This document shows positions 721 through 54,037 of a stretch of 64,000 nt of DNA, one piece after another. Position 1 is the first letter of the stretch; each line of letters begins with the position of its first letter. This DNA comes from a virus (lineage: Duplodnaviria > Heunggongvirae > Uroviricota > Caudoviricetes): the IMG/VR virus record IMGVR_UViG_3300017649_000004. One strand, written 5' to 3'. The notes under the pieces are model-generated. The model ran no database searches. It was not told where the DNA came from and saw only the letters and a program-made list of their open reading frames with translations. The translations under genes and the position numbers were made by a program.

Positions 721-1067
721 GCTATTCCCAGTATCTACAGGGAAAGGCGATCCAGACCGGCTGTGACTGGCGGCTGAAAATCACGATCAATTCGGCCGCT
801 CTGGAGGAGTTTCCCTCTAACGCCCATTTCCTCGCGCACATTCGCGATCACGCAGATGGTCCTTTGAAGGCCGCTCTCTCCACTGAGGACGGCACCATCA
901 CGCGTATGAACTCCAAGACCATCGAGCTGATCATTCCCGCCACCGTCAGCGCCAGCTGGCAGGCGGGCACTGTCGTAATGGACGTGCTGCGCGTCGATAC
1001 CAGCACCCCGATCCACCTGGGATTTGACCTCGAAGTCCCGGTCAAGCGCACAATTACGAGACCCTAA
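717..1067 (+). CDS. hypothetical protein
   Basis: 116-aa ORF. ATGA overlap with the upstream gene, and its TAATG stop overlaps the tail fiber start. Confidence 0.45.
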   Translation: MSYSQYLQGKAIQTGCDWRLKITINSAALEEFPSNAHFLAHIRDHADGPLKAALSTEDGTITRMNSKTIELIIPATVSASWQAGTVVMDVLRVDTSTPIHLGFDLEVPVKRTITRP

Positions 1068-4000
1068 TGTCCGAAGAAGTAGTCCTTAATTTCGCCGACG
1101 ACATCAAGGTTGTGCAGCGTCACAACAAGGACGTGCATCTGGTGCTTTCGAAGGAAGGCACGCAAGGTGTCCCGGGCCTCAAAGGTGACAAGGGTGATAA
1201 AGGCGACCCTGGCGACAGCGCCTATACGGTTGCCGTGCAGAATGGCTTCAGCGGAACTGTTTCGCAGTGGCTGGACTCGCTCAATGGCAGGCCGGTCGAG
1301 ATGCGCCGCAATGGCACCGACGTTGAGTGGCGCATTCAGGGAGACAGCACCTGGGCTGCTCTGTTCCCGCTCAACGATGTGAAGGGTGACAAGGGCGACA
1401 AGGGCGACAAGGGTGATCAGGGTGACAGCGCCTACACGGTCGCTGTTCAGAACGGCTTTGTCGGCACTGTGTCGGCCTGGCTTGCGTCCCTTCACGGCAA
1501 GCCGATCGAGGTCCGGCGCAACGGCGCAAACATCGAATGGCGCATTCAGGGTGAGACGACCTGGACCGTCATGGTGCCGCTTGCGGACATCAAGGGCGAC
1601 AAGGGCGATAAGGGCGACACTGGCGCGACCCTCGAGATGCGTGACAATGGCACCTATCTCCAGTGGCGTCCGGTTGGCGCCACGACGTGGAACAACCTCG
1701 TTTCCAAGGCTGACATCAAGGGCCAGGACGCCAAGGAGCTCGAACTTCAGAAGACGACCACGCACATTCAGTGGCGGCGCGTTGGTGACGTCTGGAACAA
1801 CCTCGTCGAACTCATCGAGCTGAAGGGCGAGGACGCCGAGGAAATCGAAATTCGTCGCAGCGGCGACTACTTGCAATGGCGCCGCGGAACCGGTGCCTGG
1901 ACAAACTTTGTCGAACTGACCGACATCAAGGGCGATCCGGGCGAAGAAATCGAAATCCGCAAGACCTCTACGCACATTCAGTGGCGCCTCGGCGAAGGCG
2001 CCTGGCAGAATGTCGTTGCAATCACCGACCTTGTTGGCCCGACCGGCAACAACGCATGGACGCCGGTCATTGCGTTGCTTTCGCATGGCGAGAGCCGCGT
2101 GCAGCAGATCATCGATTGGATCGGCGGCTCGGGCGCAAAGCCGGCAACCGGCATGTATCTCGGTCCGACCGGCTACGTCACCGACATCAACGATGCGACC
2201 GACGTTCGCGGCACAGCCGGCGCTGGCTCGGGCGACATGGAAATGTTGACCTATGACCCGGATGAAGACGGTATCGTTGAGCGCGCCGATGTTGCTGACA
2301 GCGTTGCCTGGGAGGGCGTCACCGACAAGCCGTCGGCCTTCCCGCCGACCGCGCACGAACATTCGGCCAGCGAAATCAACTCGGGCACGCTCAATGCTGC
2401 TCGTATTCCGGACCTGGCAATCTCGAAGATCACCAACCTTCAGTCCGAACTCAACGGCAAGGTGAATGCTTCGCAGCTCGGCGTTCCGGGCGGCGTGGCA
2501 ACCCTCGATGAGCTGGGCAAGGTTCCCGCCGCGCAGCTTCCGAGCTACGTCGATGACGTTCTGGAAGTGGAAGACTATGAGAGCTTGCCGACGACCGGCG
2601 AGAGCGGCAAGATCTACGTGCTCGTCACGCCCTACACCTCGGGCGGTGTGACGTCCTCGCAGTTCCGCTGGACCGGCTCGAGCTATGCGCCGATCGTTGC
2701 GTCGCCTGGCTCGACCGACGCTGTGCCGGAAGGTCCGAACAACCTCTATTTTACCTATGGACGTGTTCGCTCGACGGCCCTGTCCGGCCTCTCGACCGCG
2801 ACGAACGCCGCGATTGCGGCAGGCGACACGGTTCTGAGCGCCTTTGGCAAGCTTCAGGCCCAGATCACCGCAGCCGTTAACGCGATCGCCGGCAAGGCGG
2901 ACGCTTCGCACACCCACGCAAATGCCACGACCTCGGCCCATGGCTTCATGTCGTCGACCGACAAGAGCAAGCTCGACGGGATCGAAGCAAACGCTGACGT
3001 GACTGACGCGCAGAATGTGGGCTCGTCTATTCACGGATCGACGGCCAAGACGACCCCTGTCGATGCTGATACTGTTGCGCTGATCGATAGCGCGGCCTCG
3101 AACGCCCTGAAGAAGCTGTCCTGGTCGAACATCAAGGCGACGCTCAAGACCCACTTTGACACGCTCTACGCTGGAAAGGCACACTCGCACGCCTTCGCCG
3201 ACATCACCGGCAAGCCGACGACGCTTGCTGGATACGGCATCACGGATGCGCTGGCCGGTGAGACGCACACGCACCCGATGTCGGACGTGAGCGGCCTCGA
3301 GGATGCACTTGCCGCCAAGGCACCGCTTGCCTCGCCGGCGTTCACCGGCAACCCGACTGCCCCCACTCAGTCGGCCGGCAACAATACGACCCGTATCGCA
3401 ACGACGGCGTTCGTGCAGACGGCCATTTCGAGCAAGGCCAATACCGCGTCTCCGGCTCTGACCGGCACGCCGACTGCTCCGACCGCCGCCGCCGGCACCA
3501 ATACGACGCAGATTGCAACTACGGCGTTCGTTCAGACGGAAATTGCCGGCAAGGCAAACACCTCGCACACTCATGCAATCGGCGATGTGACCGGTCTTCA
3601 GGATGCGCTGAAGGGCAGTTTCACTGATACGGCGGTTCCGACCATCACTGACCTCGATGCGTTGCGCGGCAAGGGCATCAAGTTCTTCGCCTTCGCCGAC
3701 ACTGCGACGGGCGCACCGACCGGCTTTGGTTCGAGCTATGACGCGCTTGGTCTGAGCTGGGCGTCGAACGGCCAATGCACGCAGATCACCAATATGGGTC
3801 ACACCGGCCTTGTCTGGCGTATCGACGATGCCTCGGCAAGCTCCACGGCGACCTGGACTGAATGGGCGCGCATCCTCGACTCGCTCAACTTCAGCGAGTT
3901 CGCGATGCCGATCGGGGGCACCACTGGCACCCTCACGATGAAGCGTCAGGGTAACGACGAGCTGCCGCCTCTCGTTGTCGAGAACACCAACTACGCGACG

Positions 4001-5023
4001 CGCGCCGTCATGGAGTTCAAGACGACCGGCTCGTATCCGGTTTTCATCGGTCAGGGCGATCAGGGCTATTTCGCGATCGGCAATAGCTGGGACATTCGTG
4101 ACTCTGCCAATGCTACGTTCCGCGTCCAGGCCCATACCGGCAATGTCAACACGAAGGGCACCCTGAAGGTTGACGGCAAGGCGACGTTCGCGGCCGCAAC
4201 CTCGGCTGGTGCCGGCATCAACATCGGTCAGGCCGCGCTCAACCCGAGCACGCTCGCGGACGGTGACATGTGGATCAATGGCAGCGCGCTCTATGTCCGC
4301 TGCAACGGCACGAACCGTGTTCTCGGCGCTACCGGCAATCTGTCGACCGTCTCGCAGGCGGAAGCAGAAGCAGGCACGGCAACTACGACCCGCGCCTGGA
4401 CGGCTCAGCGTGTTGCCCAGGCCATCGCAGCTCAGGCCGCTGCCAAGACACATACCCACGCGATTTCGGACATCACGAACCTCCAGACGGCGCTTGACCA
4501 GAAGGTAACTAACGACGACGCGGTGATCAAAGGTGTCCTCACGGTGAGGGAGGCCACCACCGGGGGTATTGGCGCTATTGAGCTTGGCGGTCAGTCCGGC
4601 GCGAACACGCCCTACATCGACTTCCACTGCGGCGCGACCGCCATCGACTACGACGTCCGGATCGTTGCGAGCAACGGTAACGGCACCAATGGTGGCGGCG
4701 TCCTGAACATCTCTGCGACCAGCGTGACCGCTAGCGGAAACCTTGGTGCCTATTCCGATGCTCGTCTCAAGACGAATGTTGAAACGATCGAGGACGGCCT
4801 CAGTCTCGTCTCGCAGATGCGCGGTGTCCGCTACACCCGAGATGGCAAGCGTCAGGTTGGTGTCATCGCTCAGGAAATGCAGAAGGTGCTGCCTGAAGTC
4901 GTCATTGAGGCTGACGACGAGATGAAGACCCTTGCAGTCACCTACGGCAACATCGTCGGCGTCCTGATCGAAGCGATTAAGGAGCTGAAGGCTGAGGTCG
5001 ACGAGATGAAGAGGGCAGCGTAA
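1067..5023 (+). CDS. tail fiber protein with collagen-like GDKGDKGD triplets, tandem N-terminal repeat modules, fiber repeats and a C-terminal peptidase S74 intramolecular chaperone domain
   Basis: 1318 aa. Three copies of a ~50-aa module (...SAYTVAVQNGF.GTVS.WL.SL.G.P.E.RRNG...EWRIQG..TW) flanked by (KGD)n collagen-like runs. Five or more 'L/IQWRR...W.N.V...DIKG' repeats. Duplicated 'TTRIATTAFVQT' tail-fiber repeat. C-terminus 'SDARLKTNVETIEDGLSLVSQMRGVRYTRDGKRQVGVIAQEMQKVLPEVV' matches the S74 self-cleaving chaperone (S-D-x-R-x-K motif). Confidence 0.85.
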   Translation: MSEEVVLNFADDIKVVQRHNKDVHLVLSKEGTQGVPGLKGDKGDKGDPGDSAYTVAVQNGFSGTVSQWLDSLNGRPVEMRRNGTDVEWRIQGDSTWAALFPLNDVKGDKGDKGDKGDQGDSAYTVAVQNGFVGTVSAWLASLHGKPIEVRRNGANIEWRIQGETTWTVMVPLADIKGDKGDKGDTGATLEMRDNGTYLQWRPVGATTWNNLVSKADIKGQDAKELELQKTTTHIQWRRVGDVWNNLVELIELKGEDAEEIEIRRSGDYLQWRRGTGAWTNFVELTDIKGDPGEEIEIRKTSTHIQWRLGEGAWQNVVAITDLVGPTGNNAWTPVIALLSHGESRVQQIIDWIGGSGAKPATGMYLGPTGYVTDINDATDVRGTAGAGSGDMEMLTYDPDEDGIVERADVADSVAWEGVTDKPSAFPPTAHEHSASEINSGTLNAARIPDLAISKITNLQSELNGKVNASQLGVPGGVATLDELGKVPAAQLPSYVDDVLEVEDYESLPTTGESGKIYVLVTPYTSGGVTSSQFRWTGSSYAPIVASPGSTDAVPEGPNNLYFTYGRVRSTALSGLSTATNAAIAAGDTVLSAFGKLQAQITAAVNAIAGKADASHTHANATTSAHGFMSSTDKSKLDGIEANADVTDAQNVGSSIHGSTAKTTPVDADTVALIDSAASNALKKLSWSNIKATLKTHFDTLYAGKAHSHAFADITGKPTTLAGYGITDALAGETHTHPMSDVSGLEDALAAKAPLASPAFTGNPTAPTQSAGNNTTRIATTAFVQTAISSKANTASPALTGTPTAPTAAAGTNTTQIATTAFVQTEIAGKANTSHTHAIGDVTGLQDALKGSFTDTAVPTITDLDALRGKGIKFFAFADTATGAPTGFGSSYDALGLSWASNGQCTQITNMGHTGLVWRIDDASASSTATWTEWARILDSLNFSEFAMPIGGTTGTLTMKRQGNDELPPLVVENTNYATRAVMEFKTTGSYPVFIGQGDQGYFAIGNSWDIRDSANATFRVQAHTGNVNTKGTLKVDGKATFAAATSAGAGINIGQAALNPSTLADGDMWINGSALYVRCNGTNRVLGATGNLSTVSQAEAEAGTATTTRAWTAQRVAQAIAAQAAAKTHTHAISDITNLQTALDQKVTNDDAVIKGVLTVREATTGGIGAIELGGQSGANTPYIDFHCGATAIDYDVRIVASNGNGTNGGGVLNISATSVTASGNLGAYSDARLKTNVETIEDGLSLVSQMRGVRYTRDGKRQVGVIAQEMQKVLPEVVIEADDEMKTLAVTYGNIVGVLIEAIKELKAEVDEMKRAA

Positions 5024-6179: not shown

Positions 6180-6932
6180 ATGCCCAAGCCCTCCAAGTCC
6201 CTCGCCCGTCAGAAGCGCCGCGAGAAGCGTGCGCTCGCCGCTGAGAAGCGCCAGATTCTTGACCAGTTCCAGAGGGACCAGGCTCCCTTCGCCCCTCGCA
6301 AGGCAAGAGTCGAACCTGTCCGGCCGCTGACGGCCGCGCAGCGTGCCTATGACGCAGCAATCCATACCGCCGATGTCGTCTTCGGCATTGGTCCGGCCGG
6401 CACCGGCAAGACCTGGTTTGCCGCCATGCGAGCTGCTGAGGCGCTCGACATGAAGGAGATCAAGAAGATCATCGTCACGCGCCCCGCCGTTGAAGCCGGC
6501 GAGTCCCTCGGCTATCTGCCGGGCGAGCTCGAGGAGAAATACGAGCCCTACTTCCGGCCCGTGCGCGATGCCTTCGAGGAGTATTTTGGCCGGGGCTACG
6601 CGGAGTATCTGATCAAGGAAGGCAAGATCGAAGCTCGTCCGCTGGCCCTTCTGCGCGGCGCGACCATCAAGGACGCCTGGCTGATCGCCGACGAAATGCA
6701 GAATGCGACCGAAGGGCAGTTCAAGATGCTCCTGTCGCGCATTGGTGAGAATGCAAAGTTCATCCTCAATGGCGATCCGAAGCAAAGCGACCTGCCGGCG
6801 GGCAAGTCTGGCCTCATCACCGTGCAGAAGAAGCTGGAGCATATCGACGGCATTCAGACCGTCCGGTTTGGTCGTGGTGACATTGTGCGCTCTGGCATCT
6901 GCCAGGCGATCGTTGAAGCGTTTGAGGGATAA
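6180..6932 (+). CDS. phoH: PhoH-like ATPase
   Basis: Walker A 'GPAGTGKTWFAAMRAAEAL' and overall PhoH-family organisation. This is a common phage auxiliary gene. Confidence 0.85.
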   Translation: MPKPSKSLARQKRREKRALAAEKRQILDQFQRDQAPFAPRKARVEPVRPLTAAQRAYDAAIHTADVVFGIGPAGTGKTWFAAMRAAEALDMKEIKKIIVTRPAVEAGESLGYLPGELEEKYEPYFRPVRDAFEEYFGRGYAEYLIKEGKIEARPLALLRGATIKDAWLIADEMQNATEGQFKMLLSRIGENAKFILNGDPKQSDLPAGKSGLITVQKKLEHIDGIQTVRFGRGDIVRSGICQAIVEAFEG

Positions 6933-11411: not shown

Positions 11412-12851
11412 GTGACCATGAGCGCCTTCGACGTAATGATGCTCATTGACCAGATCGCGGCAACTTCGTCGCGATCGGAGAAGGAGCGTCTGACCTGCGA
11501 GCTTGCCAAGTTCGAGGTCGGGCGCTTCGCCCTCAAATGGGCATACGACCCCAACATCACCTATGGCATCAACGTGAAGGCGATGCCTGAAGGCAATGGC
11601 ATGGACATCGCCTTCACCACTCCGACGATCGAGCCGCTCTTGACGAAGCTCGCAACGCGACGGCTCGCCGGCAAGGCGGCCGAGCGCGAGGTCCATGAGG
11701 TTCTCGCCGCGCTCAACGACTATTCGCGCACCCTCCTGCTGCGCATCCTGATGAAAGACCTCAAGTGCGGCATTGCCGAGTCCACGATCAATCTGGCGAT
11801 GCCTGGCCTGATCCCGGTCTTCTCCGTGATGCGCGCGCAGAAGTTCGAGGAAAAGCGCCTCAAGACCTGGCCGCAGATCATCGAGCCGAAGCTCGACGGC
11901 TACCGGTTCACCTTCCTGTGCCGCGACGGCCACGGCGGCTTCTTCACGCGCTCGGGCAAACGTGCGCCGGCGGCCGATCACCTCGTTGAGCCGATGATCG
12001 CAACGGCGCTCGCCGCCCTGCAGGTGAGCCAGAACAACACGCTTCGGTCTACGCTCAGCACTCGTCCGGGCGATCTGACGCGCTATGCTCGCGATGATCT
12101 GAATTTCATGGTCGACGGCGAAATGATGATGCCGGGCGACTTCAATGAAACGGGCGCGCTCAGGCGCAAGGACGAGCAGGCGCTGGATGCGACGTTCCAC
12201 GTCTTCGACATCATGTCCTATGCCGACTTCAACGCACCGGGCAGCTTCGCCAAGCCCTATATGGAGCGGCGCAAGCTGGTCGAGGAGTTCGTCGCAAACG
12301 CTGTGAGCGACAAGATCACCAAGACGCCCCGCTACATCATCAACTCGGTCGATGAGGCCTACGAATACTACAACAAGTTCCGCGAGCGCGGGCTTGAAGG
12401 CGCAATGGTCAAGGATCCGAACGGCTTCTACGACAAGAAGAAGTCCTACTCCTGGCTCAAGATGAAGGCCGAGGAGAGCGAGGATCTTCCGATCGTCGGC
12501 GTCTTCCAGGGCGAGCCGATGACCAAGTATGAGCACTGTCTCGGCGGCATTATCGTTCGGCGCGAGAACGGCATGAACGTCAGCGTTGGTGGCGGTTTCA
12601 CCGACCAGCAGCGCGAGGAGCTTTGGGAGCTCTGGAAGGCTGACGCAAAGGAGCTGCGCATTTTGCCCGACTGCGGCCCCAAGGGCGTCTTCGTCCAGCC
12701 GACCGAGCCGCTGACCAACGGCAAGCTCATCGGCCGCCTCGCCGAGATCCGCTACCACGAGGAGACGCCTGACGGGTCGCTGCGTCATCCGCGCTTCCTG
12801 CGCTTCCGCGACGACAAGGCGGGCGAGCTCGAGGCGAACGAGGCAGCATGA
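11412..12851 (+). CDS. ATP-dependent DNA ligase
   Basis: Adenylation motif I 'IIEPKLDGYRF' (KxDG) and a ligase-like length of 479 aa. Confidence 0.8.
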   Translation: MTMSAFDVMMLIDQIAATSSRSEKERLTCELAKFEVGRFALKWAYDPNITYGINVKAMPEGNGMDIAFTTPTIEPLLTKLATRRLAGKAAEREVHEVLAALNDYSRTLLLRILMKDLKCGIAESTINLAMPGLIPVFSVMRAQKFEEKRLKTWPQIIEPKLDGYRFTFLCRDGHGGFFTRSGKRAPAADHLVEPMIATALAALQVSQNNTLRSTLSTRPGDLTRYARDDLNFMVDGEMMMPGDFNETGALRRKDEQALDATFHVFDIMSYADFNAPGSFAKPYMERRKLVEEFVANAVSDKITKTPRYIINSVDEAYEYYNKFRERGLEGAMVKDPNGFYDKKKSYSWLKMKAEESEDLPIVGVFQGEPMTKYEHCLGGIIVRRENGMNVSVGGGFTDQQREELWELWKADAKELRILPDCGPKGVFVQPTEPLTNGKLIGRLAEIRYHEETPDGSLRHPRFLRFRDDKAGELEANEAA

Positions 12852-13090
12852 AGTTCTTCCTCGTCATCTACATCGGCACTCAGGTGGCGGGTCTGATTGA
12901 CCCCTCTCCTGTCACGCGCAACGAATGCCTGCTTCGCGAGGCAAAGCTCAACCGTGAGCTACGCGAGCTGGTCAGCCTGATTACCGCGGTGGCCGCGCCT
13001 GGCAGACTGCCGAAGGACTTTCAGTCCATCCGCGTGGTCTGCGAGTATCGCAACAAGCGTCCGGCGATCACCTACGAGCGCAAACACTAG
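12848..13090 (+). CDS. hypothetical small protein
   Basis: 80 aa with a hydrophobic N-terminus, overlapping the ligase stop. Confidence 0.4.
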   Translation: MKFFLVIYIGTQVAGLIDPSPVTRNECLLREAKLNRELRELVSLITAVAAPGRLPKDFQSIRVVCEYRNKRPAITYERKH

Positions 13091-13091
13091 C

Positions 13092-14216
13092 TCATTCGCG
13101 CCTGCGCTGCGCATAGCGGCGCAGTTCGCCCGCAAGATTGACCTTGCCCTCCCTGATCAGGCGCACCAATGCCCTGAAATAGCCGCCGGCGTTCTTGATC
13201 GGGTCCGATCCGGGCGTCGGCTGTGCCTGTAGCTGCACCACATAGACGAGCGTTGCCGCCGCGGGCAGGTGCCCAATTCGCTCGCAAGCTTCCTCCCAGC
13301 CCGACGGCGACACGCCAAATGCGCCTCTCATGCGCGCGGCGGCCGCAATCAACTCCCGATCCGAGCGCACTTCGCCGAAAAATTCCATTGCGTCAGGGCA
13401 AGTGTGGATCAAATCCGCGGCGTTCGCAGTTAGACTCGGCGGTTCGGCCCCACTAGTAGACTCATTGCCGTTGTTACAAGACTGGTCAGGGGCATATTTG
13501 TTATGGTCTTCATGACGGCCATTCTTGCCGCCACAGGCGGCATAATATCTTCCCTCGGCTTCCTCACGCAGCTGCTTCCACTCCGACCGGAACGGTTCAA
13601 CCGCGCATCCCTTGGCAGAGCGCCTGGGAGAGCGTCTGGCAAGCTCGAGGGCTCGCGCCGTCAGGTCGCTGATGTCTTCCTGCGGGAAATACTCGGCAAG
13701 CGCCCTGAGCGCTTCCTGAGCCGAACGGCGATGCACCGTCAGTTCATCGAAGGCCAGCTTCCACTCATGCTCGCGCTCGGCCTGCGCCTGCACCATCTGA
13801 CGCCACTCTTCCATGCGCGCGACGAGCGGGCCAAGGTCGAAGCCATAGGCACGAATGATCTGGCCCTGCCGTGAGCGCTGGGCAAACCGCTTGCCGTTCG
13901 GGCTGTCCTTGGTGGTGATGACGCCAAGCTCGATCAGCCGGCGAATGGCGTAGCGGATCGTGCGCTCGGGAACGCCCGTGCGCTCCACCAGGTATTCGTT
14001 CGACGGCCAGACGAGCATCCGGCCCTCAATCAGTTCACCGCCATAGACGGCGCAAAGCTGGTCGAGAATGTAGCGGCAGCCGGTATTCAGGCTGAGCGCC
14101 TTGGCGCACAGACGCGCCGCCTCAAAAAGATCCTGTTTGTCGGCTGAACTCGGCTCGACTGGTAACGGCGCAAGCGCCGCCATCGAGCGCCAACCGGTAT
14201 GTTGCGCTTTCCTCAT
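13092..14216 (-). CDS. repC: RepC-like plasmid replication initiator
   Basis: The N-terminal region 'LDQLCAVYGGELIEGRMLVWPSNEYLVERTGVPERTIRYAIRRLIELGVITTKDSPNGKRFA...AYGFDLGPL' resembles the repABC RepC N-terminal domain (the DSPNGKRYA motif). The gene is on the minus strand in an otherwise plus-strand genome. Confidence 0.6.
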   Translation of the reverse strand: MRKAQHTGWRSMAALAPLPVEPSSADKQDLFEAARLCAKALSLNTGCRYILDQLCAVYGGELIEGRMLVWPSNEYLVERTGVPERTIRYAIRRLIELGVITTKDSPNGKRFAQRSRQGQIIRAYGFDLGPLVARMEEWRQMVQAQAEREHEWKLAFDELTVHRRSAQEALRALAEYFPQEDISDLTARALELARRSPRRSAKGCAVEPFRSEWKQLREEAEGRYYAACGGKNGRHEDHNKYAPDQSCNNGNESTSGAEPPSLTANAADLIHTCPDAMEFFGEVRSDRELIAAAARMRGAFGVSPSGWEEACERIGHLPAAATLVYVVQLQAQPTPGSDPIKNAGGYFRALVRLIREGKVNLAGELRRYAQRRRE

Positions 14217-14364
14217 TTTGCTTCCCCAAATCGGGGCAAAGCTCCGCCAGTCCGGTCGCTAGCAACCGGTTGACAAATCACCTCTGATTCGGGATAACCA
14301 CCTTGGTGACGCTTTGAGATTGGTTATCTCGGTTTGCGGGTGATTATCTCGAAGAGGAATTTTG
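14217..14364. repeat. iteron-like GATAACC / GGTTATC / GATTATC repeats downstream of repC
   Basis: 'GGGATAACCACC', 'GATTGGTTATCTCGG', 'GGTGATTATCTCG'. Three copies of a TTATC-core motif in both orientations within ~70 bp. Confidence 0.4.
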
Positions 14365-14400
14365 AAAAGGCCCTGGGATTGCCGTCTCGGGGCCTTTTGC
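14365..14400. terminator. bidirectional rho-independent terminator
   Basis: AAAAGGCCC ... GGGCCTTTT stem flanked by an A-run and a T-run, placed just beyond the 3' end of the minus-strand RHH gene. Confidence 0.55.
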
Positions 14401-14406
14401 TTTGCC

Positions 14407-14676
14407 CTACATCCTTCTTCCTTCCAAGAATGCGTTCACTGCCTGCGCGACCAGCTCAGACCGGTTCTTAAAGCCACCCTGCGCTACAAACTGGTCCATG
14501 TCGCTGCGGAGTTTTTCGTTAAGCCAGACCACGATCTGTGCCTCTCCTGCTGCCTCACGGTTAAGCCGATACCTCTGTGCGGGGTTAAGTGCTCTGGTGT
14601 CCTTCGTCATAGTTCCGAATCCGAAAATCAGATCGCTCGCTAGTGATGCCCGATTCCCTCGAAAGTCGATAGCCAC
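14407..14676 (-). CDS. ribbon-helix-helix (CopG/Arc-like) transcriptional regulator
   Basis: 89 aa with a GTG start. 'IVVWLNEKLRSDMDQFVAQGGFKNRSELVAQAVNAFLEG' fits the RHH beta-alpha-alpha pattern (...NRSE..A...). Confidence 0.55.
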   Translation of the reverse strand: MAIDFRGNRASLASDLIFGFGTMTKDTRALNPAQRYRLNREAAGEAQIVVWLNEKLRSDMDQFVAQGGFKNRSELVAQAVNAFLEGRRM

Positions 14677-14870
14677 AAATTTTTAACCACAACCGCATCG
14701 ATCGTTGCACGCCACGGCTGTAGGCAGCGGCGCGGGTTCGACTCAGCGGCGCCCAGTAAGTATGCGCTAATTTACATTCCCACAAGAGCAGCGCTATATG
14801 TGAGTCACAGCGCAAGCGATTTGCGGTTAAGAGCGACAAAACGCATTCAGAGGAACGCTAAGGAACGAAT
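14677..14870. promoter_or_regulatory. divergent switch region between the RHH and XRE regulator genes
   Basis: Contains direct repeats CCACAA-N10-CCACAA, the near-palindrome TGTGA-G-TCACA, and a GCGCTATATG box, all within 194 bp. Confidence 0.45.
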
Positions 14871-15377
14871 ATGAGCGAAGCACAGGGGCGCCCCGAGAAA
14901 GACAACGAAATCGGCCGGTTCATCGAAGGACGGATGAGTCAGCTTGGCCTCACACAGCGTGAGGTTGCGGATATCGTCGGCTTTAAGAACCGCAATATGC
15001 TCTCATTCATCAAGAACGGCGACGGCAAGCTCCCACTTGAGCGCGTTGCCGGCATGGCGCGCGCGCTTAAAGTTCCAGCTTCCGAGTTGTTCGAGATGGC
15101 GCTTAGACAGCACTACTCGTCGGACACCATTGAGCTGATGAAGCAGGCGCTCACAGAGGCGTCCCTTTCAAGAGACGAGGCAGAACTCCTGGACCTGTTT
15201 CGGGTTCATGTGCCGCGCGGCAAGTTTACAGCCGACGCCCTGCGCCGGATAGCCGACGAGATGGAAAAGACTGGCAAAGACCAGGCGGTCGAAGCGGCTC
15301 GTAAGCAACTCGCCGAGGCGGCAAGGTTCGGCCGCAGGGCCGTGCCGAATGAGGAGATCGAACCCGAAGAAAGCTGA
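14871..15377 (+). CDS. HTH XRE-family (Cro/CI-type) transcriptional regulator
   Basis: 'MSQLGLTQREVADIVGFKNRNMLSFIKNGDGKLPLERVAGMARALKVPASELFEM' is a canonical XRE helix-turn-helix. It is transcribed divergently from the RHH gene. Confidence 0.7.
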   Translation: MSEAQGRPEKDNEIGRFIEGRMSQLGLTQREVADIVGFKNRNMLSFIKNGDGKLPLERVAGMARALKVPASELFEMALRQHYSSDTIELMKQALTEASLSRDEAELLDLFRVHVPRGKFTADALRRIADEMEKTGKDQAVEAARKQLAEAARFGRRAVPNEEIEPEES

Positions 15378-15473
15378 CGAATTTATCCACCCCATGCGTC
15401 GCCAGGTTATATCTGAGGCGGCGCACTTTTACGCGTCCTTGTTGATAAGGAAGCGCTTACTTAAACCAGAAGC

Positions 15474-15674
15474 ATGATGGCCCACATGACGAAGAATGCA
15501 CCTGTCCTGTTTATGTCCAATGAAGATGCACTGGAGATTGCTCAGGACATGACGGAGCTGACAATCAACCACCTTGAAGGTGTGACCGTTTATACCGGTA
15601 AGCATCAAAAACACGGCTCTTGCCACGTTATTGTCCCTGCGTTCGGCGGGTCTATGCTTCTATTCTCCTTTTGA
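15474..15674 (+). CDS. hypothetical small protein
   Basis: 66-aa ORF preceded by a hairpin-motif variant. Confidence 0.35.
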   Translation: MMAHMTKNAPVLFMSNEDALEIAQDMTELTINHLEGVTVYTGKHQKHGSCHVIVPAFGGSMLLFSF

Positions 15675-15737
15675 GCTCCAAGCGCGCTTTTTGTATCTCA
15701 AAGCGTAAGTAAACGCTTAGTTATCCGCGAGAGAGAC

Positions 15738-18086
15738 ATGAACCGTGAAATCGTAGAGCTCCGCGAAGTCATCACGAAGCTGGTGCCGCTGCTGGCTGGT
15801 CGTGGCCTCAAGGTCACGCAGCGTGGCAGCCAGGCTTACGTGAATGCTGATCCGGTCACGAAGAAGCCAGTGTCGGTCAACATTCCGAACATTTCGGACA
15901 ACGCATCGCCGGACTTCATCCGCGCGATCCAGGGCTTCATCGATCACGAAGTGGCTCATGTCCTCTACACGGACTGGAACCACTACTGCCGCGGTGCGTC
16001 TGCGGCAGATTTGAAGAAGCCGGAAGTGCAGCGCTTCATGAACACCCACAACATCGTGGAGGACACGATGATTGAGCGGCGCATGGTCGAGGACTTCCCC
16101 GGCTCAAGCCGCAATCTGTCGGACACGCGCCGCTACTTCCTTGAGCGCATCACCAAGAAGGCGCTCGAGACAGCCAAGAACGACAAGGAAGCGTTCATCT
16201 ACCTGCTCGTGCCGACCATGCGCGCGCTCGCTGGTCAGCAGGAGATGCAGGACTTCATGGATGACGGCGGCTACTGGAAGAACCCCTTCGTCAAGGGCGT
16301 GGTCGAAGGCTTGAAGCCTGACACCCTCCAGAAGCTCAAGAAGGCGCGCTCCACGATCGAGACGCTGGAGATTGCCGAAGAACTCCACGCAATTCTCTAT
16401 CCGCCGCAGCCTCCGGCACCACCCATGCCGTCGGCACCGTCCGACTGCGATGACGAGGGGCAGGACAGCGACAGCAGCTCCGGCAGCCCGAGCTCCTCGA
16501 AGAAGAGCAAGGACAAGCCCGAGAAGAAGGCTGACGAGGGTGATGGCGACGGTGAGCGCGATCACCAGGAGTCAGGCGAGGAGGGCACGTCCAAGGACAA
16601 GAAGGGCAAGAAGGACAAGTCGAAGAAGGACGACAAGTCCGACGAGGAGAAGGAGGAAGGCGCTGGCGACAAGGGCGATGACGAGGACGCCCGCGACGGC
16701 GAGGAAGACGAGGACGGCGAAGGCGGTGATGCCGGCGACGATGATGGCGAGTCTGACGCCGGTGACGAGGGCGAGGAGGAAGACGACGACAAGGGCAAAG
16801 ACAAGGGCTCTGACGGCGACGAGGAAGAAGGCGGAGACGACGAGGGCGAAGGCTCCGGCGGCGAAGGAGACGATGAGTCTGAGGACGCCGATGAAGGCGG
16901 CGATGATGAGAACGGTGAGGATGGCTCTGGAGCGCCCGGCAAGTCCGGCGACAAGGGCGGTGACTCCGACGAGGAAGGAAAGAAGAAGGCACCGGAAGTG
17001 ATCACCGAAGGTGCTGACGGTGGCGGCGTTGGTGAAATGAACGGCGACGACACCGAAAACTCTCCTGGTGGCGGCGTCAGCAACGACGAAGGTAAGAGCC
17101 TGTTCGACTTCGATGACGATGCCTTCGAAGAAGCGGACATGAGCAAGCAGATCGCGATCCTCATCTCCGACGAAGCCGTCGAAGCGATGGATCCTGCCGA
17201 ATACCTCGTCTACACGCGCGAGTTCGACCGGATCGAGCCCGTCAACGTGCCTGACAAGATGGATTCGACCTGGGTGCCGAAGATGGAAGAGGAAGTGCGT
17301 CTGACGAGCGGCCGCTTGCAGAAGGACATTGAGCGGATGCTCGCCTCGCAGTCGCACGTCATCCGCACGCCTGGTCACAAGAAGGGCAAGCTACATGCGC
17401 CTTCGCTCTATCGCGTGATGCAGGGCGATCCGCGCGTGTTCACGCAAAAGCAGGAGCATGTGTCGAAGGACACGGCAGTGACCCTTCTGTGCGACAACTC
17501 CGGCTCTATGGGCGGTGCCAAGATGAAGCTCGGCATGATTTCGTCCTACGCGCTGGCGGTCACGCTCGAACGGGTCAAGATCAGCTACGAAGTGCTCGGC
17601 TTCACCACCGGCAACTTCTCGCGCATTCCCAACTCGATCCTCGAAGCGATGCAGGACGAAGTGGCAAAGACCGGTCTGCGATACGATCGGATCGAGCCGA
17701 TCAACATGCCGATCTACAAGGACTTCGATGAGCGGCTCGATGCGCGCGTAAAGGCGAGGTTCGCTTACATGATGTTCGCGCAGCGCGGTCTGAACGGCAA
17801 CATCGACGGCGAGTCCCTCGAATATGCTGCCATGCGCCTGATGAAACGCCCTGAAAAGCGCAAGGTGATGATCGTGCTGTCTGATGGTCAGCCTGCCGGA
17901 TCCTGGCGCTCCGGGCCTCACCTCAAGACGGTGGTCGAGCGCCTCAACAAGACGGGCATCGAGACCGTCGGCATCGGCATCATGGATCGCTCCGTGGCGC
18001 GCTACTACGACAAGCATGTGGTCATCACCAAGCTCGACGACCTGCCGGGCAGCGTCATGGGCGAGTTGAAGCGCATTCTGACGTAA
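15738..18086 (+). CDS. cobT: CobT-like vWA-domain protein with a hyperacidic D/E/G-rich linker
   Basis: C-terminal vWA MIDAS motif 'LLCDNSGSMGG'. There is a ~250-aa acidic low-complexity tract in the middle. Partnered with the downstream CobS-like AAA+ gene. Confidence 0.75.
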   Translation: MNREIVELREVITKLVPLLAGRGLKVTQRGSQAYVNADPVTKKPVSVNIPNISDNASPDFIRAIQGFIDHEVAHVLYTDWNHYCRGASAADLKKPEVQRFMNTHNIVEDTMIERRMVEDFPGSSRNLSDTRRYFLERITKKALETAKNDKEAFIYLLVPTMRALAGQQEMQDFMDDGGYWKNPFVKGVVEGLKPDTLQKLKKARSTIETLEIAEELHAILYPPQPPAPPMPSAPSDCDDEGQDSDSSSGSPSSSKKSKDKPEKKADEGDGDGERDHQESGEEGTSKDKKGKKDKSKKDDKSDEEKEEGAGDKGDDEDARDGEEDEDGEGGDAGDDDGESDAGDEGEEEDDDKGKDKGSDGDEEEGGDDEGEGSGGEGDDESEDADEGGDDENGEDGSGAPGKSGDKGGDSDEEGKKKAPEVITEGADGGGVGEMNGDDTENSPGGGVSNDEGKSLFDFDDDAFEEADMSKQIAILISDEAVEAMDPAEYLVYTREFDRIEPVNVPDKMDSTWVPKMEEEVRLTSGRLQKDIERMLASQSHVIRTPGHKKGKLHAPSLYRVMQGDPRVFTQKQEHVSKDTAVTLLCDNSGSMGGAKMKLGMISSYALAVTLERVKISYEVLGFTTGNFSRIPNSILEAMQDEVAKTGLRYDRIEPINMPIYKDFDERLDARVKARFAYMMFAQRGLNGNIDGESLEYAAMRLMKRPEKRKVMIVLSDGQPAGSWRSGPHLKTVVERLNKTGIETVGIGIMDRSVARYYDKHVVITKLDDLPGSVMGELKRILT
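16440..17110 (+). repeat. GAC/GAG/GGC-rich low-complexity coding repeat (CobT acidic linker)
   Basis: Runs of gacgag/gaagac/ggcgat codons that produce long mirror ORFs on both strands. Confidence 0.6.
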
Positions 18087-18198: not shown

Positions 18199-19461
18199 AT
18201 GACGGACACTGCTCTCGTCGCCGACAACGCGTCGGCGGCCACCGCCACTGTTGCGACTCCTGATGACGGCAAGATCGTTTGCCAGCTCGATGGTGTTCGC
18301 TGCCACATCATTCAGACGCACCTGCGCGACCATCATCCGAACTACACGATCGAGGACTATATCCGCGATTATCCGGATGCTCCGCTCATGTCGCCGACGG
18401 CTCTGGCGATGAAGGAGAAGCGCGAGAAGGAGCTGGCTGCCAAGAAGGCGGCTCAGGCAGCGGCCGCACCAGCAGGTGCCCAGGCAGCGCTCGTCACTGA
18501 AAGCGTTGGCGCAGCTTCGCTCGTTGCCAAGAACGAGCTGTTCCATGAGGTCTTCGAACTCGGCAATGCGCCGGCGGCGATGAACTCGATGGGCAAGCCA
18601 ATCCCTTGCACCGTGTTCACCGGTCACGACCACCTCTCGCGCGACTATCTGGCAGAGGTCGATAAGGCCTATGTGTTCAACATCGACCTGCTCAAGAAGG
18701 TCATGGTGGGCTTGCAGCTCAACATTCCGATCTATCTGTGGGGTATGCACGGCACTGGTAAGACGACCGTGCTCGAACAGGCAGCTGCGCGCACTCGCCG
18801 GCCGTTCCTGCGCAACCAGCACACCATCAACATGCAAGAGTCCGACGTTCTCGGACAGTGGACCGTCAAGGATGGCTCCACGCAGTTCCAGCTCGGGCCG
18901 CTGCCGATGGCGATGATCCACGGCTGGGTCTACTGCGCCGACGAGTATGACTTTGCCATGCCGTCCGTGACCGCGCTCTACCAGCCGGTGCTCGAAGGCA
19001 AGCCGCTGCTGATCAAGGAAGCGCCGGCAGAGTTCCGCAAGATCGAGCCGCATCCGAACTTCCGCTTCTGCGCAACCGGCAACACGAATGGCGGCGGTGA
19101 CGAGACTGGCCTCTACCAAGGCACGCTGGTGCAGAACGCGGCGAACTACTCGCGCTTCGGCATCACCGAAGAAGTCAAATACATGGAGCCGGCGCTCGAG
19201 GAGAACGTGATTTGCGCCAAGACGCGGATCAGCAAGTCGGATGCTTCGAAGATCGTCCGGTTCGGCAACGACATTCGCAAGGCCTTCGGTGAAGGCAAGA
19301 TCAGCGCGACCGTCTCGCCGCGTGAGTTGATCTGCGCCGCTCGCCTGGGTGTCGCATTCGGCGGCAACTGGAAGATGGGCCTTGAACTTGCCTTCGGTAA
19401 CCGCCTCTCGCGCATCGATCGCAAGACCGTCGAGCAGTATCTCCAGCGGATCTTCCCGTAA
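18199..19461 (+). CDS. cobS: CobS/MoxR-like AAA+ ATPase
   Basis: Walker A 'LWGMHGTGKTTVLEQAA' and MoxR/CobS-type AAA+ organisation, sitting directly after the CobT-like gene. Confidence 0.75.
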   Translation: MTDTALVADNASAATATVATPDDGKIVCQLDGVRCHIIQTHLRDHHPNYTIEDYIRDYPDAPLMSPTALAMKEKREKELAAKKAAQAAAAPAGAQAALVTESVGAASLVAKNELFHEVFELGNAPAAMNSMGKPIPCTVFTGHDHLSRDYLAEVDKAYVFNIDLLKKVMVGLQLNIPIYLWGMHGTGKTTVLEQAAARTRRPFLRNQHTINMQESDVLGQWTVKDGSTQFQLGPLPMAMIHGWVYCADEYDFAMPSVTALYQPVLEGKPLLIKEAPAEFRKIEPHPNFRFCATGNTNGGGDETGLYQGTLVQNAANYSRFGITEEVKYMEPALEENVICAKTRISKSDASKIVRFGNDIRKAFGEGKISATVSPRELICAARLGVAFGGNWKMGLELAFGNRLSRIDRKTVEQYLQRIFP

Positions 19462-20096
19462 TGCAGCAAGTGAAATACCGCGACCCGAAGGAGTCGAAGG
19501 CGCAGATCCGCGCCTTCGCCTACAAAGTTCTGCGGCGCATTCATGCACTGGGCGGCAAGACCACCTCGCTTGAGGACGTCGAGCAGGAGCTTTGGATTGC
19601 CTGGTGCAAGGCGTGCGAAGCCTATGACGAGAAGGGCGGCGCAAGCTTCAAGACCTTCCTGCACATCGGCATGGTGCGTCACATCAACCGCTACGTGCAG
19701 AACAACTTCGAGCGCCTGCACGGTGAAACGGTTGCGCTCTCGCTCGAAGCACCGATGGGTGACGATGACGGCGCAACGCTCGCTGAGGCTGTTCCTGACA
19801 CGGCCGAGCGTCAGGACACGAAGCTGATCGAGGAAGACGTCAAGGAGCGCGTGATGCGCCGGCTGACGCCTCGGGCACGTCAGTTCGTCCAGATCCTGCA
19901 CGACCAGCCGATCGAGCTGGTCCGGGAGCTGGACAAGTTCAAAGAGAAGCAAAAGGTCGCGCGCGAAGTCGGGGTTCAGTTCTCCGCTCCGCGCCGCCTC
20001 ACCAGCTGGATGGTTTTCGATCTCATGGGCGCCAGCCGCACGGAGCGCACGGCGATCATGCGCGAAATCGAAGCCGTCACAAGAAAGTTCGCCTGA
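19461..20096 (+). CDS. sigma-70 family (ECF-like) RNA polymerase sigma factor
   Basis: Region-2-like 'ELWIAWCKACEAYDEKGGASFKTFLHIGMVRHINRYV' and region-4-like 'LTPRARQFVQILHDQP'. Overlaps the cobS stop (TAATG). Confidence 0.6.
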   Translation: MQQVKYRDPKESKAQIRAFAYKVLRRIHALGGKTTSLEDVEQELWIAWCKACEAYDEKGGASFKTFLHIGMVRHINRYVQNNFERLHGETVALSLEAPMGDDDGATLAEAVPDTAERQDTKLIEEDVKERVMRRLTPRARQFVQILHDQPIELVRELDKFKEKQKVAREVGVQFSAPRRLTSWMVFDLMGASRTERTAIMREIEAVTRKFA

Positions 20097-52414: not shown

Positions 52415-53365
52415 GTGCTCAAACAGTTTGCCCTAGATTACCAGTCGCATGCGTTCCGCTCCACGAGGGCGATACATGCCGACTGTTTCGAGTGGCTGGG
52501 TCGCATTCCCGCAGACAGCCTCCACGCCATTGTGACCGACCCGCCCTATGGAGTGAAGGAATACGATTTCGATCAATTGGAGAAGAAGGATAACGGCAAC
52601 GGCGGCATATGGCGCATCCCGCCCTCCTTTGATGGTCATATACGGTCGCCCCTCCCGCGATTCACAGCCCTCGATAAGAAAGAGCGTGAAGCCATTGACC
52701 GCTTCTTCTTTGAGTGGGGCAAACAGGTCATTCATGCCCTTCGGCCCGGCGGGCATGTATTTCTCGCCAGCAATTCATTTTTGTCGCAGCTGGTGTTCAG
52801 TGCTCTAGTGCGCAGTGGGCTTGAGTTTCGCGGGGAGTTCATCCGGCTAGTGCGCACCCTTCGAGGAGGGGACCGCCCAAAGAACGCTGAGGAGGAGTTC
52901 CCGGATGTGTGCTCCATGCCGCGAGGCTGCTACGAACCGTGGGGCATTTTCCGCAAGCCGATCCCGACAAAGATGACTGTCGCCGAGTGCCTGCGCACGT
53001 ATCAGACCGGCGGGCTGCGTCGTCTCGCTGATGGCAACCCTTTTGCGGATGTCGTGCTCAGTGAGCGGACGCCGAAACGCGAACGTGAGATTGCGAACCA
53101 CCCAAGCATCAAACCGCAATCGCTGATGCGCCAGATCGTTCGCGCAGCCCTCCCTTTGGGTGAGGGCGTGATTGCCGATCCATTCATGGGCTCTGGCTCC
53201 ACCGTGGCAGCAGCGGAGGCACTAGGGCTACATTGCGTGGGCGTAGAGCGGTATCGGGACTATTACGACATGGCTGTCGAAGCAGTGCCGCAACTCGCTC
53301 GCGTCGATGTTCGATCCTTTGCCCACAAGGAAGTGGAGCTGGAATCGCAGCTCCATCTCCTCTGA
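52415..53365 (+). CDS. DNA methyltransferase (beta-class N6-adenine/N4-cytosine)
   Basis: Motif IV 'IVTDPPYGV' precedes motif I 'ADPFMGSGSTVAAAEALG'. No hairpin promoter element lies upstream. Confidence 0.8.
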   Translation: MLKQFALDYQSHAFRSTRAIHADCFEWLGRIPADSLHAIVTDPPYGVKEYDFDQLEKKDNGNGGIWRIPPSFDGHIRSPLPRFTALDKKEREAIDRFFFEWGKQVIHALRPGGHVFLASNSFLSQLVFSALVRSGLEFRGEFIRLVRTLRGGDRPKNAEEEFPDVCSMPRGCYEPWGIFRKPIPTKMTVAECLRTYQTGGLRRLADGNPFADVVLSERTPKREREIANHPSIKPQSLMRQIVRAALPLGEGVIADPFMGSGSTVAAAEALGLHCVGVERYRDYYDMAVEAVPQLARVDVRSFAHKEVELESQLHLL

Positions 53366-54037
53366 CTACAACGGCAAGCCTGGCGCGTTGTAGATCCAGT
53401 TCGCCATCATCTTCTCGTAGCCGGAGTTGGTCACGCTTGCCGTGATCGTTCTCCGGCTAGTTTCGGACCGCCCGGCGAACTTCCAATCCTCTTTGGTCAA
53501 TTGTGCGCCCACAACGCGGAGGAACCGGAAAGGCATGGGTGGCACCCCGTTCGCCTCATCAACCGCTCGGTTGCCGTCGAACATGATCACCATCAACCAG
53601 CAATCCTCCGCGTTGTGCCCTTGCCACGACTTGAGGTAGCGAGAGGCCTTAACCTCGATACCTTCGTTGCAGTATTGCATCGAATCGTTAGGGAACCGTC
53701 CAGCTGGAAGAAGGTCTGGGTGCCCGTTGTGGTAACGATTCTTGACGATGCCCGGGGAGTGTTTGGGCAGATTCGCGGTCATGAACTCGCCCACAATGCT
53801 GCTAAAGTTCGCGGGCATCAGCATTGTCTCTAAACGAGGTGATGCGTTCTCATGCAGCCGAACATTAACCATCTGCATGAAGCCGATGAAATCGTTCATC
53901 GCCGCGCAGATGTGTTCGATCGTCACGCCGTAAGGGATAACCGCATTTGGGTTGAAGTGCTCGATCTTTACCGGCTCAGGGTTGCAGGCTTGGAATTCTA
54001 GTTGTTCTTCTGGTGTCATCCGCTCCGCTTGCTCCAC
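53366..54037 (-). CDS. candidate type II restriction endonuclease (PD-(D/E)xK)
   Basis: 223-aa minus-strand gene convergent with and abutting the MTase. It has a PD...ExK arrangement ('HPDLLPAGRFPNDSMQYCNEGIEVK'). Confidence 0.45.
   Translation of the reverse strand: MEQAERMTPEEQLEFQACNPEPVKIEHFNPNAVIPYGVTIEHICAAMNDFIGFMQMVNVRLHENASPRLETMLMPANFSSIVGEFMTANLPKHSPGIVKNRYHNGHPDLLPAGRFPNDSMQYCNEGIEVKASRYLKSWQGHNAEDCWLMVIMFDGNRAVDEANGVPPMPFRFLRVVGAQLTKEDWKFAGRSETSRRTITASVTNSGYEKMMANWIYNAPGLPL

Follow-up and report, generated by a model that had tools for sequence, protein, structure and literature searches.

What is the initiator of a rhizobial plasmid doing inside the genome of a tailed phage? 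This question is raised by the IMG/VR virus record IMGVR_UViG_3300017649_000004 (Caudoviricetes), of which we analysed a stretch of 64,000 nucleotides, here called the window. An initial annotation, made from the sequence alone, had noticed a minus-strand gene resembling repC, the initiator of repABC plasmids, together with a small minus-strand gene and a divergent plus-strand regulator, and had read this arrangement as a sign of a phage-plasmid lifestyle. We found that the gene encodes a genuine RepC. The locus as a whole is best read, with a probability that we put at roughly 80%, as the module for plasmid-type replication in a large siphovirus-like phage-plasmid, made up of a small ribbon-helix-helix (RHH) gene, a predicted antisense countertranscript RNA (ctRNA) gene within the leader of repC, and repC itself.

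A plasmid initiator among phage replication genes

13092-14216, minus strand: repC, replication initiator of the alphaproteobacterial RepC family, 374 amino acids

The product of this gene is unambiguously a RepC. The open reading frame (ORF) contains KDSPNGKRFAQRS, and its product matched the Pfam models RP-C (E 8.3e-43, 146.6 bits against a cut-off of 24.4) and RP-C_C (E 2.9e-16, 60 bits against 32.6), as well as the NCBIfam equivalog NF040974 RepABC_RepC (216.5 bits against a cut-off of 150, residues 21-362). These searches, which the initial annotation had proposed as a check on its RepC-like initiator, gave a decisive answer, with both domain models and the equivalog above their cut-offs. 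Among phage protein families, the product matched phrog_22671, described as a replication protein (3e-91).

RepC proteins with 61-63% identity are encoded by ten Rhizobium siphophages of 115-122 kb (among them RHEph10, B1VFA, V1VFA-S, RHph_X66, N1_10, N1_15, N2_6, Y2_11 and Y2_17). Equally similar proteins are found on the circular plasmids pLM21S1 of Sinorhizobium sp. LM21 (117.5 kb) and pRlX6 of R. beringeri (119 kb). The closest RepC that we found, with 72% identity, lies on a contig of Chelativorans composti, suggesting that the host of this virus probably belongs to another genus than Rhizobium.

The surroundings of repC are shared as well. The genes around it encode, in order, DnaB, primase, a WGR protein, ligase, RepC (minus strand), the RHH protein (minus strand), an XRE-family regulator (plus strand), a small ORF, a CobT-like vWA protein, an AAA ATPase, a sigma factor and DnaE, and this order is identical in the window, RHEph10, B1VFA and pLM21S1. 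Across the RHEph10/pLM21S1 group, the likeness to the window runs from ligase through DnaE and onward to ribonucleotide reductase (RNR) and SPFH genes. The replisome that had been listed before (DnaB, primase, DnaE and single-stranded DNA-binding protein, SSB) was found as described, within a set of replication genes that comprises DnaB, primase, ligase, DnaE, a gp32-like SSB and RecA.

Phages that form plaques and resident circular plasmids of 115-120 kb thus have this gene order in common, which supports the proposed phage-plasmid lifestyle. The conclusion that a RepC in such a phage marks a phage-plasmid is supported, yet it has already been published for the RHEph10/pLM21S1 lineage. In the account of Dziewit et al. 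(2015), pLM21S1 is a "plasmid-like prophage" that replicates by a RepC-like system, has a partition module, lacks an integrase and has 83 genes in common with RHEph10; the authors put the two forward as archetypes for a new group (PMC4447125). Decewicz et al. (2017) and Pfeifer et al. (2021) treated pLM21S1 as a phage-plasmid homologous to RHEph10 (PMC5537653, PMC7969092), the latter terming it a "known P-P" (PMC7969092). Gunathilake et al. (2025) found parA, parB, repC and a DNA-binding regulator in B1VFA and V1VFA-S, reported that these phages are 93-94.5% identical to plasmid pRlX6, and called them possible prophage-plasmids (PMC12509600).

The window is a new, divergent member of this group. 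It has no close nucleotide match in the phage and plasmid collections, the best being about 70-76% over conserved genes. The portion of the genome seen here includes a tail fibre with an S74 chaperone domain, the replisome, RNR and repC; head and packaging genes lie outside it. The full record of pLM21S1 contains terminase, capsid and tail genes. Its parA lies about 70 kb from repC, and both parA and parB are present in pLM21S1, B1VFA and V1VFA-S.

More distant relatives extend the group further. RepC proteins of about 40% identity are found on plasmids of 115-117 kb from Pararhizobium (NZ_CP119570, 115.7 kb), Shinella (NZ_CP132310, 117.5 kb) and Methylobacterium (NZ_CP006993 and NZ_CP090351, about 117 kb), and one of 48% identity on a 114 kb Ancylobacter contig (NZ_FMTP01000010) that is also present in IMG/VR as a viral genome. 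At the DNA level, the Pararhizobium, Methylobacterium and Ancylobacter replicons match the window in dnaE, AAA ATPase or sigma factor genes; the DNA match of the Shinella plasmid is confined to an 82-nt stretch of the ligase gene. Further genomes of the group, of about 120 kb, are present in IMG/VR. The phage-plasmid group therefore seems to be much wider than the Rhizobium and Sinorhizobium members discussed in the papers cited here.

The leader of repC contains a predicted antisense RNA gene

14234-14269, minus strand: conserved repC-proximal leader, a box at 14234-14248 and a hairpin at 14252-14269 (alignment A1)
14270-14298, plus strand: predicted ctRNA promoter, TTGACA-N17-GATAAC
14305-14404, plus strand: predicted ctRNA of about 95-100 nt, antisense to the leader between the RHH gene and repC, ends estimated

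The leader extends from the stop codon of the RHH gene (14407) to the start of repC (14216). The initial annotation had described here iteron-like TTATC repeats and a bidirectional terminator, which it placed downstream of repC. Repeats and hairpin are present; they sit upstream of the gene, in its 5' leader. We aligned the leaders of ten relatives (alignment A1) and found three conserved blocks. The one nearest to repC is made up of a near-invariant box and a hairpin. The box, at 14234-14248, reads GGCGGAGCTTTGCCC on the repC strand of the window and GGCGAAGCTTTGCCC in relatives. Next to it, between the predicted ctRNA promoter and the ribosome-binding site of repC, the hairpin at 14252-14269 varies in sequence and preserves its pairing; it has 7 bp in the minimum free energy (MFE) fold of the leader and was also scored as a palindrome. 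It may act as a stem-loop analogous to the p42d element.

A further block, of 32 nt and nearly invariant, reads GTTGACA-N17-GATAAC on the plus strand and points from repC towards the terminator. TTGACA is invariant, and GATAA(C) is present in 19 of the 20 aligned loci, the exception being L023 (GAAAAC). The pattern TTGACA-N17-GATAAC occurs once in the 64 kb window against an expectation of 0.00. The sole conserved TTATC is the complement of the -10 box of this promoter, and the other two copies sit in a 20-nt tandem duplication found in the window only. The spacer of the promoter holds a dyad, AATCA-N4-TGATT (14276-14289), which 18 of 20 related loci have in the equivalent place (alignment A7). 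The arms are conserved around a variable centre, as would be expected where a dimeric protein binds DNA. Several relatives also have an ATCAC-N8-10-GTGAT dyad upstream of the RHH start. These dyads are candidate sites, and the RHH protein (or RepC) might bind both.

The predicted ctRNA consists of a stem-loop 1 followed by an intrinsic terminator, formed by a hairpin at 14365-14398 and then TTTTGCTTTG. This hairpin, the third of the conserved blocks, is G+C-rich, is flanked by A/T runs on either side, and lies directly after the RHH stop. The predicted plus-strand transcript folds with an MFE of -43.2 kcal/mol (z = -5.2), and the two-hairpin shape, with a covarying stem-loop 1, recurs in every relative. 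On plain MAFFT alignments, the terminator differs between strands. On the plus strand, its helix has 14-15 uninterrupted pairs, including invariant U.G wobbles, with TTTTGCTTT after it. In the sense of repC, C.A mismatches replace the wobbles, and the T-run is a short one. Across relatives, the antisense strand is 93.3% paired with four compensatory pairs, against 76% for the sense strand, where one position is unpaired in 10/10 sequences and another in 9/10. The "bidirectional terminator" is thus a good intrinsic terminator on the plus strand only.

We built a covariance model (R1) from the ten leader sequences and searched it over 22 sources, which included 12 loci outside the training set. 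Each locus, the 12 independent ones included, gave exactly one full-length match. All matches are antisense to repC, end 40-60 nt upstream of its start, and reach relatives with 46-48% RepC identity (E 1e-10 to 1e-24). In the whole window, the sole full-length match is 14260-14412 on the plus strand. In the alignment A7, which comprises 20 sequences fitted to R1 (a fit that favours the structure), 92.9% of cells are paired, rising to 98.8% in the terminator. Double-sided changes occur in 11 of 20 pairs, the observed covariation was reached by 0 of 500 column shuffles, and in slid controls pairing falls to 33-56%.

Taken together, the TTATC motif and the "terminator" make better sense as parts of a predicted antisense RNA gene, namely its promoter and its terminator. 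A search of 13000-15500 with Rfam cmscan (E <= 10) returned three chance-level matches to unrelated families and left ctRNA_p42d unmatched. The predicted RNA would accordingly be an analogue of the repABC ctRNA by architecture rather than a recognised member of that RNA family.

Stem-loop 1 differs in length within the group. In the window, a 20-nt tandem duplication (14310-14349, copies 75% identical) lengthens it to about 17 bp. The Chelativorans locus (L015, 5860-5925) has an extended stem containing GGTTATCC, and the Rhizobium phages have a stem of 5-8 bp. These differences may reflect diverged incompatibility specificity.

A small gene that travels with repC

14407-14610, minus strand: probable ribbon-helix-helix protein, 67 amino acids, upstream of repC on the same strand

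An alignment with nine homologues of 64-68 residues places the start of this gene at ATG 14610 (67 residues) and not at GTG 14676 (89 residues). The small minus-strand gene of the initial annotation, ending at 14407, is therefore present with a start other than the 14676 given there. Its assignment to the RHH fold draws on several weak and coherent observations. The product had no match in Pfam, RHH families included. It matched the RHH N-terminus of NikR with E 0.004, and a profile of ten homologues searched against PDB retrieved only RHH domains (NikR, ParD and HicB), weakly, at E 0.005-0.6. RefSeq labels the homologues as RHH. The AlphaFold2 monomer (predicted local distance difference test score 82.7) has two helices and no strand, which is uninformative on the fold since the RHH strand forms only in the dimer. 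The top Foldseek match of the model was a ParD RHH domain (root-mean-square deviation 0.7 A over 32 columns, E 2.4). We regard the product as a probable RHH protein.

The distribution of this gene is informative on its role. Only 12 plasmid records yielded homologues, and these are essentially the ones with the same RepC subclade. The unit of RHH gene, leader and repC is present on the non-phage plasmid pRLb1 (261 kb), beside genes for 1-aminocyclopropane-1-carboxylate (ACC) deaminase and a ribosomally synthesised and post-translationally modified peptide (RiPP), and there no XRE ORF was found near the cassette. The RHH-repC pair is also carried by the non-phage plasmid pSM51_Rh08, and pRlX2 holds a decayed copy, consisting of the RHH gene and a truncated RepC. 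Since the RHH gene accompanies repC on non-phage plasmids, it belongs to the replicon rather than to a phage-specific switch. This goes against the initial proposal that it forms part of a phage lysogeny switch. The RHH protein is most plausibly the transcriptional autoregulator of the replicon, in place of RepA and RepB.

Cassettes of RHH gene, ctRNA and repC were seen in the records CP090118, NZ_CP140874, NZ_CP140864, NZ_CP050102/096/107/112 and NZ_CP053444. These are plasmids of 150-320 kb, mostly conjugative, of R. leguminosarum and R. beringeri, which carry other RepC copies; the cassette is sometimes a truncated relic. The occurrence of the cassette on large Rhizobium plasmids points to exchange of replication modules with phage-plasmids and to possible incompatibility.

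Is RepC mainly a lytic initiator?

RepC might serve the phage mainly in lytic growth, as a lambda O-like origin-binding initiator that recruits the phage DnaB, primase and DnaE. The phage would then be effectively virulent, and the plasmid ancestry of repC would be uninformative on a plasmid prophage state. The position of repC agrees with this idea, as the gene lies amid a replication cluster, with DnaB, primase and ligase on one side and DnaE, SSB and RecA on the other, and no second initiator-like gene turned up among the scanned ORFs. The winged-helix region of RepC also has weaker matches in phage "replication initiation O-like" PHROGs. Moreover, the ten relatives were isolated as plaque-forming phages, and pLM21S1 is not inducible. 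Nevertheless, we consider this explanation unlikely. Nearly identical genomes are resident circular plasmids, as in the case of pRlX6 with B1VFA and V1VFA-S, and pLM21S1 is another such plasmid. Predicted antisense copy control, together with the parA and parB of relatives, is a hallmark of low-copy plasmid maintenance and not of runaway lytic replication, and the RHH-repC cassette serves ordinary plasmids. In addition, lytic and plasmid roles of RepC are not mutually exclusive.

A candidate origin inside repC

13380-13560: candidate origin of vegetative replication (oriV), an A+T-enriched dip 656-836 nt into repC

The GC content of repC reaches its minimum at 13380-13560 (0.51-0.53, against 0.62-0.69 in the flanks). 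An equivalent dip, with a GC content of 0.47-0.51, lies about 650-750 nt into the repC of the Chelativorans locus, pLM21S1 and RHEph10. The origin of p42d is inside repC, where the A+T-rich region spans positions 450-850, and replication is lost after silent mutations that raise the GC content at positions 658-822 (PMC3155836). The dip has the same position as the oriV of p42d and is conserved in three relatives, which makes it the best oriV candidate and, by this analogy, likely the origin.

Iterons appear to play no part here. One of the three TTATC copies is conserved in relatives, and the RepC origin of p42d has neither iterons nor DnaA boxes (PMC3155836), so the iteron-like reading of these repeats does not hold. 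In the leader alignment of relatives and in a repeat search, no conserved reiterated repeats were found beside repC. We rejected an iteron-controlled origin, since the only repeat is the unconserved two-copy 20-nt tandem of the window and the RepC system is iteron-free.

The divergent region and the XRE regulator

14871-15377, plus strand: XRE-family helix-turn-helix (HTH) regulator, 168 amino acids, first gene of the rightward array
14637-14656, minus (repC) strand: conserved non-coding block GAATCGGGCATCACTAGCGA, just upstream of the RHH start in the alignment of relatives
14757-14809, plus strand: XRE-side promoter region, with the dyad GTAAGTATGCGCTAATTTAC over the -35 element and TTTACA (14771-14776)-N17-CTATAT (14794-14799)

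The XRE-family HTH protein that had been recognised on the plus strand is borne out by a Pfam HTH_3 match above the gathering score (E 2.4e-8, 34.3 bits against 23) and by a match to phrog_8, "transcriptional regulator" (6e-11). Positional orthologues with 32-35% identity are present in all phage and phage-plasmid relatives, and the XRE protein is the phage-side regulator that heads the rightward gene array. A Pfam search of the protein revealed no peptidase S24 domain at E <= 1, which fits the reported failure of mitomycin C to induce pLM21S1.

The region between the two divergent genes, given before as 194 bp, is 260 bp long once the RHH start is set at ATG 14610. On the RHH side, the GAATCGGGCATCACTAGCGA block is nearly invariant across seven relatives (alignment A5) and is also present in the Chelativorans locus; it would be a candidate promoter or operator of the RHH-repC unit. 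The spacing of the hexamers of the RHH promoter disagrees between the window and the Chelativorans locus. On the XRE side, TTTACA-N17-CTATA(T/G) and an upstream GTAAGTATGC block are common to the window and that locus, its closest relative, and CTATA(T/A) is kept in all relatives.

Two operator-like motifs had been noted in this region. The TGTGA-G-TCACA palindrome exists as TGTGAGTCACA (14799-14809), is unique in the window (0.05 expected) and lies at the predicted +1 of the XRE promoter. It was not found in relatives, so we discarded it as a conserved operator; it could be a lineage-specific one and remains a candidate for the window. The three copies of CCACAA (at 14673, 14687 and 14780) are likewise present. 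They are clustered only locally, the count over the window is at chance (22 against 21.3 expected) and the copies are unconserved in relatives, so we rejected an operator role for them.

The divergent layout could also be read as a lambda-like bistable lysogeny switch of RHH and XRE, with RHH as the maintenance repressor and the leader elements as protein-binding sites (iterons, operators, a DnaA box) next to a plain bidirectional terminator. This would agree with the XRE-side promoter-like box and dyads kept in all phage-type relatives, with the conserved TTATCCCGA, which by eye resembles a DnaA box at 7/9 positions, and with the AATCA-N4-TGATT dyad conserved in the same leader block. It is nonetheless very improbable, since the RHH-leader-repC unit occurs on non-phage plasmids without an adjacent XRE gene, the leader repeats are not reiterated in relatives beyond one TTATC copy, p42d-type RepC origins use neither iterons nor DnaA boxes, the proposed operators CCACAA and TGTGAGTCACA are unconserved, and the G.U wobbles, specific to one strand, and the compensatory changes indicate that an RNA opposite repC is under selection and are hard to explain without one.

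A model of replication control

Based on these findings, we return to the plasmid-type replication module and propose how it may work. No recognisable promoter of repC was found in the approximately 55 nt that separate its start from the ctRNA promoter. Together with the poor terminator on the sense strand, this suggests that repC relies on the RHH promoter for its transcription. In this model, transcription of repC would start at the RHH promoter and cross the leader; the leader hairpin would end the ctRNA on the plus strand, while its C.A mismatches and short T-run would permit read-through on the sense strand. The ctRNA would pair with the leader and limit the synthesis of RepC, setting copy number and incompatibility as in repABC and solo repC plasmids, and RepC would fire an origin in the A+T-rich stretch of its own gene. 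The RHH protein would probably autoregulate the RHH-repC promoter, filling the place of RepA and RepB. Finally, the divergent RHH-repC and XRE units could couple plasmid maintenance to lytic development. A maintenance-versus-lytic switch across the divergent region, as proposed from the layout, is plausible.

Several observations weigh against this model. No ParA-type Walker A motif was found by Walker-box regular expressions in any frame of the window, and the plasmid state is known for relatives and not visible in the window itself. The ctRNA is a prediction from sequence and comparison, and the Rfam model of the repABC ctRNA does not match it. The -10 element of its promoter (GATAAC) lacks the canonical final T, and a simple promoter scan of 12800-15800 revealed no sigma-70-type site; the scan missed this promoter because its rule demands a -10 element that ends in T. 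The conserved promoter block could alternatively, or additionally, be a protein-binding site, as the AATCA-N4-TGATT dyad in its spacer suggests. Profiles and fold searches match the RHH fold weakly. As to the relatives, mitomycin C does not induce pLM21S1 (PMC4447125), other members were recovered as plaque-formers, and the full cycle from plasmid to virion has not yet been shown in one isolate (PMC4447125, PMC12509600).

A more far-reaching version of the model can be put forward only tentatively, and we hold it to be well short of probable. Here, the RHH gene, ctRNA and repC would form a distinct three-part copy-control cassette, in which an RHH autorepressor governs repC instead of RepA and RepB and maybe also acts on AATCA-N4-TGATT. 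The cassette would stand back-to-back with an XRE-led lytic operon, so that one divergent region decides between maintenance and lysis. It would be exchanged among phage-plasmids and large conjugative plasmids of rhizobia and would move across several families of the Hyphomicrobiales (Rhizobiaceae, Phyllobacteriaceae, Methylobacteriaceae and Xanthobacteraceae).

Comparison with known replicons

The nearest known systems are the phages and plasmids of the RHEph10/pLM21S1 group, which have the same ctRNA elements as the window. The window differs from the Rhizobium phages in a shorter RHH-XRE intergenic region, which lacks one block conserved there. Unlike the group, it has a C-terminal extension of the XRE protein, a ctRNA stem-loop 1 lengthened by the tandem duplication, and a methylase island with an integrase-arm remnant; parA and parB are not within the window.

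Among plasmids, the closest parallel is the solo repC family, represented by pRmeGR4a of S. meliloti (Izquierdo et al. 2005), in which, as summarised in PMC10194956, a ctRNA in the repC leader down-regulates repC and sets incompatibility. Its repC is unlinked to repA and repB and has an antisense RNA gene with an intrinsic terminator nested in the leader, as in the window. At the level of sequence and comparison, the window has both features: its repC is unlinked to repAB, and the predicted antisense promoter, stem-loop and terminator are kept, with covariation, at 20 loci. In contrast to pRmeGR4a as described there, the window has a conserved RHH gene before the leader, which probably supplies the promoter, its RNA is a predicted one, and its context is a phage.

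In repABC operons, a ctRNA between repB and repC down-regulates repC and determines incompatibility (PMC10194956). The window resembles these operons (R. etli p42d, Ti plasmids) in its two-domain RepC above the RepABC_RepC cut-off, in a ctRNA antisense just upstream of repC (predicted in the case of the window), and, with respect to p42d, in an A+T-rich region inside repC (656-836 nt in the window, 450-850 in p42d) and the absence of iterons. It differs from them in that no repA and repB lie upstream of repC in the window, where the 67-residue RHH gene takes their position. In the relatives of the window, the partition genes form a separate parA module about 70 kb away.

P1, N15 and SSU5 are tailed-phage genomes kept as low-copy extrachromosomal replicons by plasmid-type replication and partition. 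The group of the window shares with them the concept of a phage-plasmid lifestyle, whereas the replication proteins are unrelated (RepA of P1, RepA of N15 and a RepA-type protein in SSU5). P1 is under iteron control, in contrast to the RepC and predicted ctRNA system of the window, and the hosts of the group are Alphaproteobacteria.

Other genes of the window

The initial annotation had taken a fragment of an integrase gene at 54095-54325 as consistent with extrachromosomal maintenance. The fragment is a true remnant (Arm-DNA-bind_3, E 1.5e-5, 25.5 bits against a cut-off of 27, profile positions 55-81 of 83). The inference on lifestyle can do without it, since relatives have no integrase at all (PMC4447125). 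It lies beside an inserted methylase island. There, an N6/N4 DNA methylase gene (52415-53365, plus strand, Pfam 4e-22) adjoins a convergent 223-residue ORF (53366-54037, minus strand), which had no family match and may encode a restriction enzyme. Methylase, ORF and integrase remnant have the look of a scar left by a small inserted island, rather than of evidence on the ability of the phage itself to integrate.

Two genes lie just upstream of the replication genes. One (1067-5023) encodes a tail fibre protein of 1318 residues, which contains phage tail repeats and ends in an S74 intramolecular chaperone domain; the other (6180-6932) encodes a PhoH-like ATPase. Downstream of the XRE gene, the CobT-like vWA protein (15738-18086) has an extremely acidic, low-complexity middle of about 300 residues, and is followed by a MoxR/CbbQ-type AAA ATPase (18199-19461) and a sigma-70 region-2 protein (19461-20096). 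This trio is kept throughout the group and has been annotated as "cobalamin biosynthesis". It is more likely a chaperone/ATPase pair with a phage sigma factor.

Implications

That a RepC in a phage marks a phage-plasmid has been published before, and the gain on this point is therefore incremental. The window adds to the RepC group a divergent member whose host is probably not Rhizobium. It also allows the replication control of these phages to be mapped (an antisense RNA, a linked RHH gene and an origin inside repC, all as predicted here), which is not described in the published genome announcements. The arrangement of RHH gene, ctRNA and repC with an internal origin would follow the known control logic of repC and repABC replicons, not previously spelled out for these phages.

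Phage-plasmids carry genes back and forth between phages and plasmids, and rhizobial ones have barely been studied. The presence of the cassette on ordinary conjugative Rhizobium plasmids predicts incompatibility and exchange of modules between resident plasmids and infecting phages. Such predicted interactions between plasmids and phages would be relevant to rhizobial inoculant strains.

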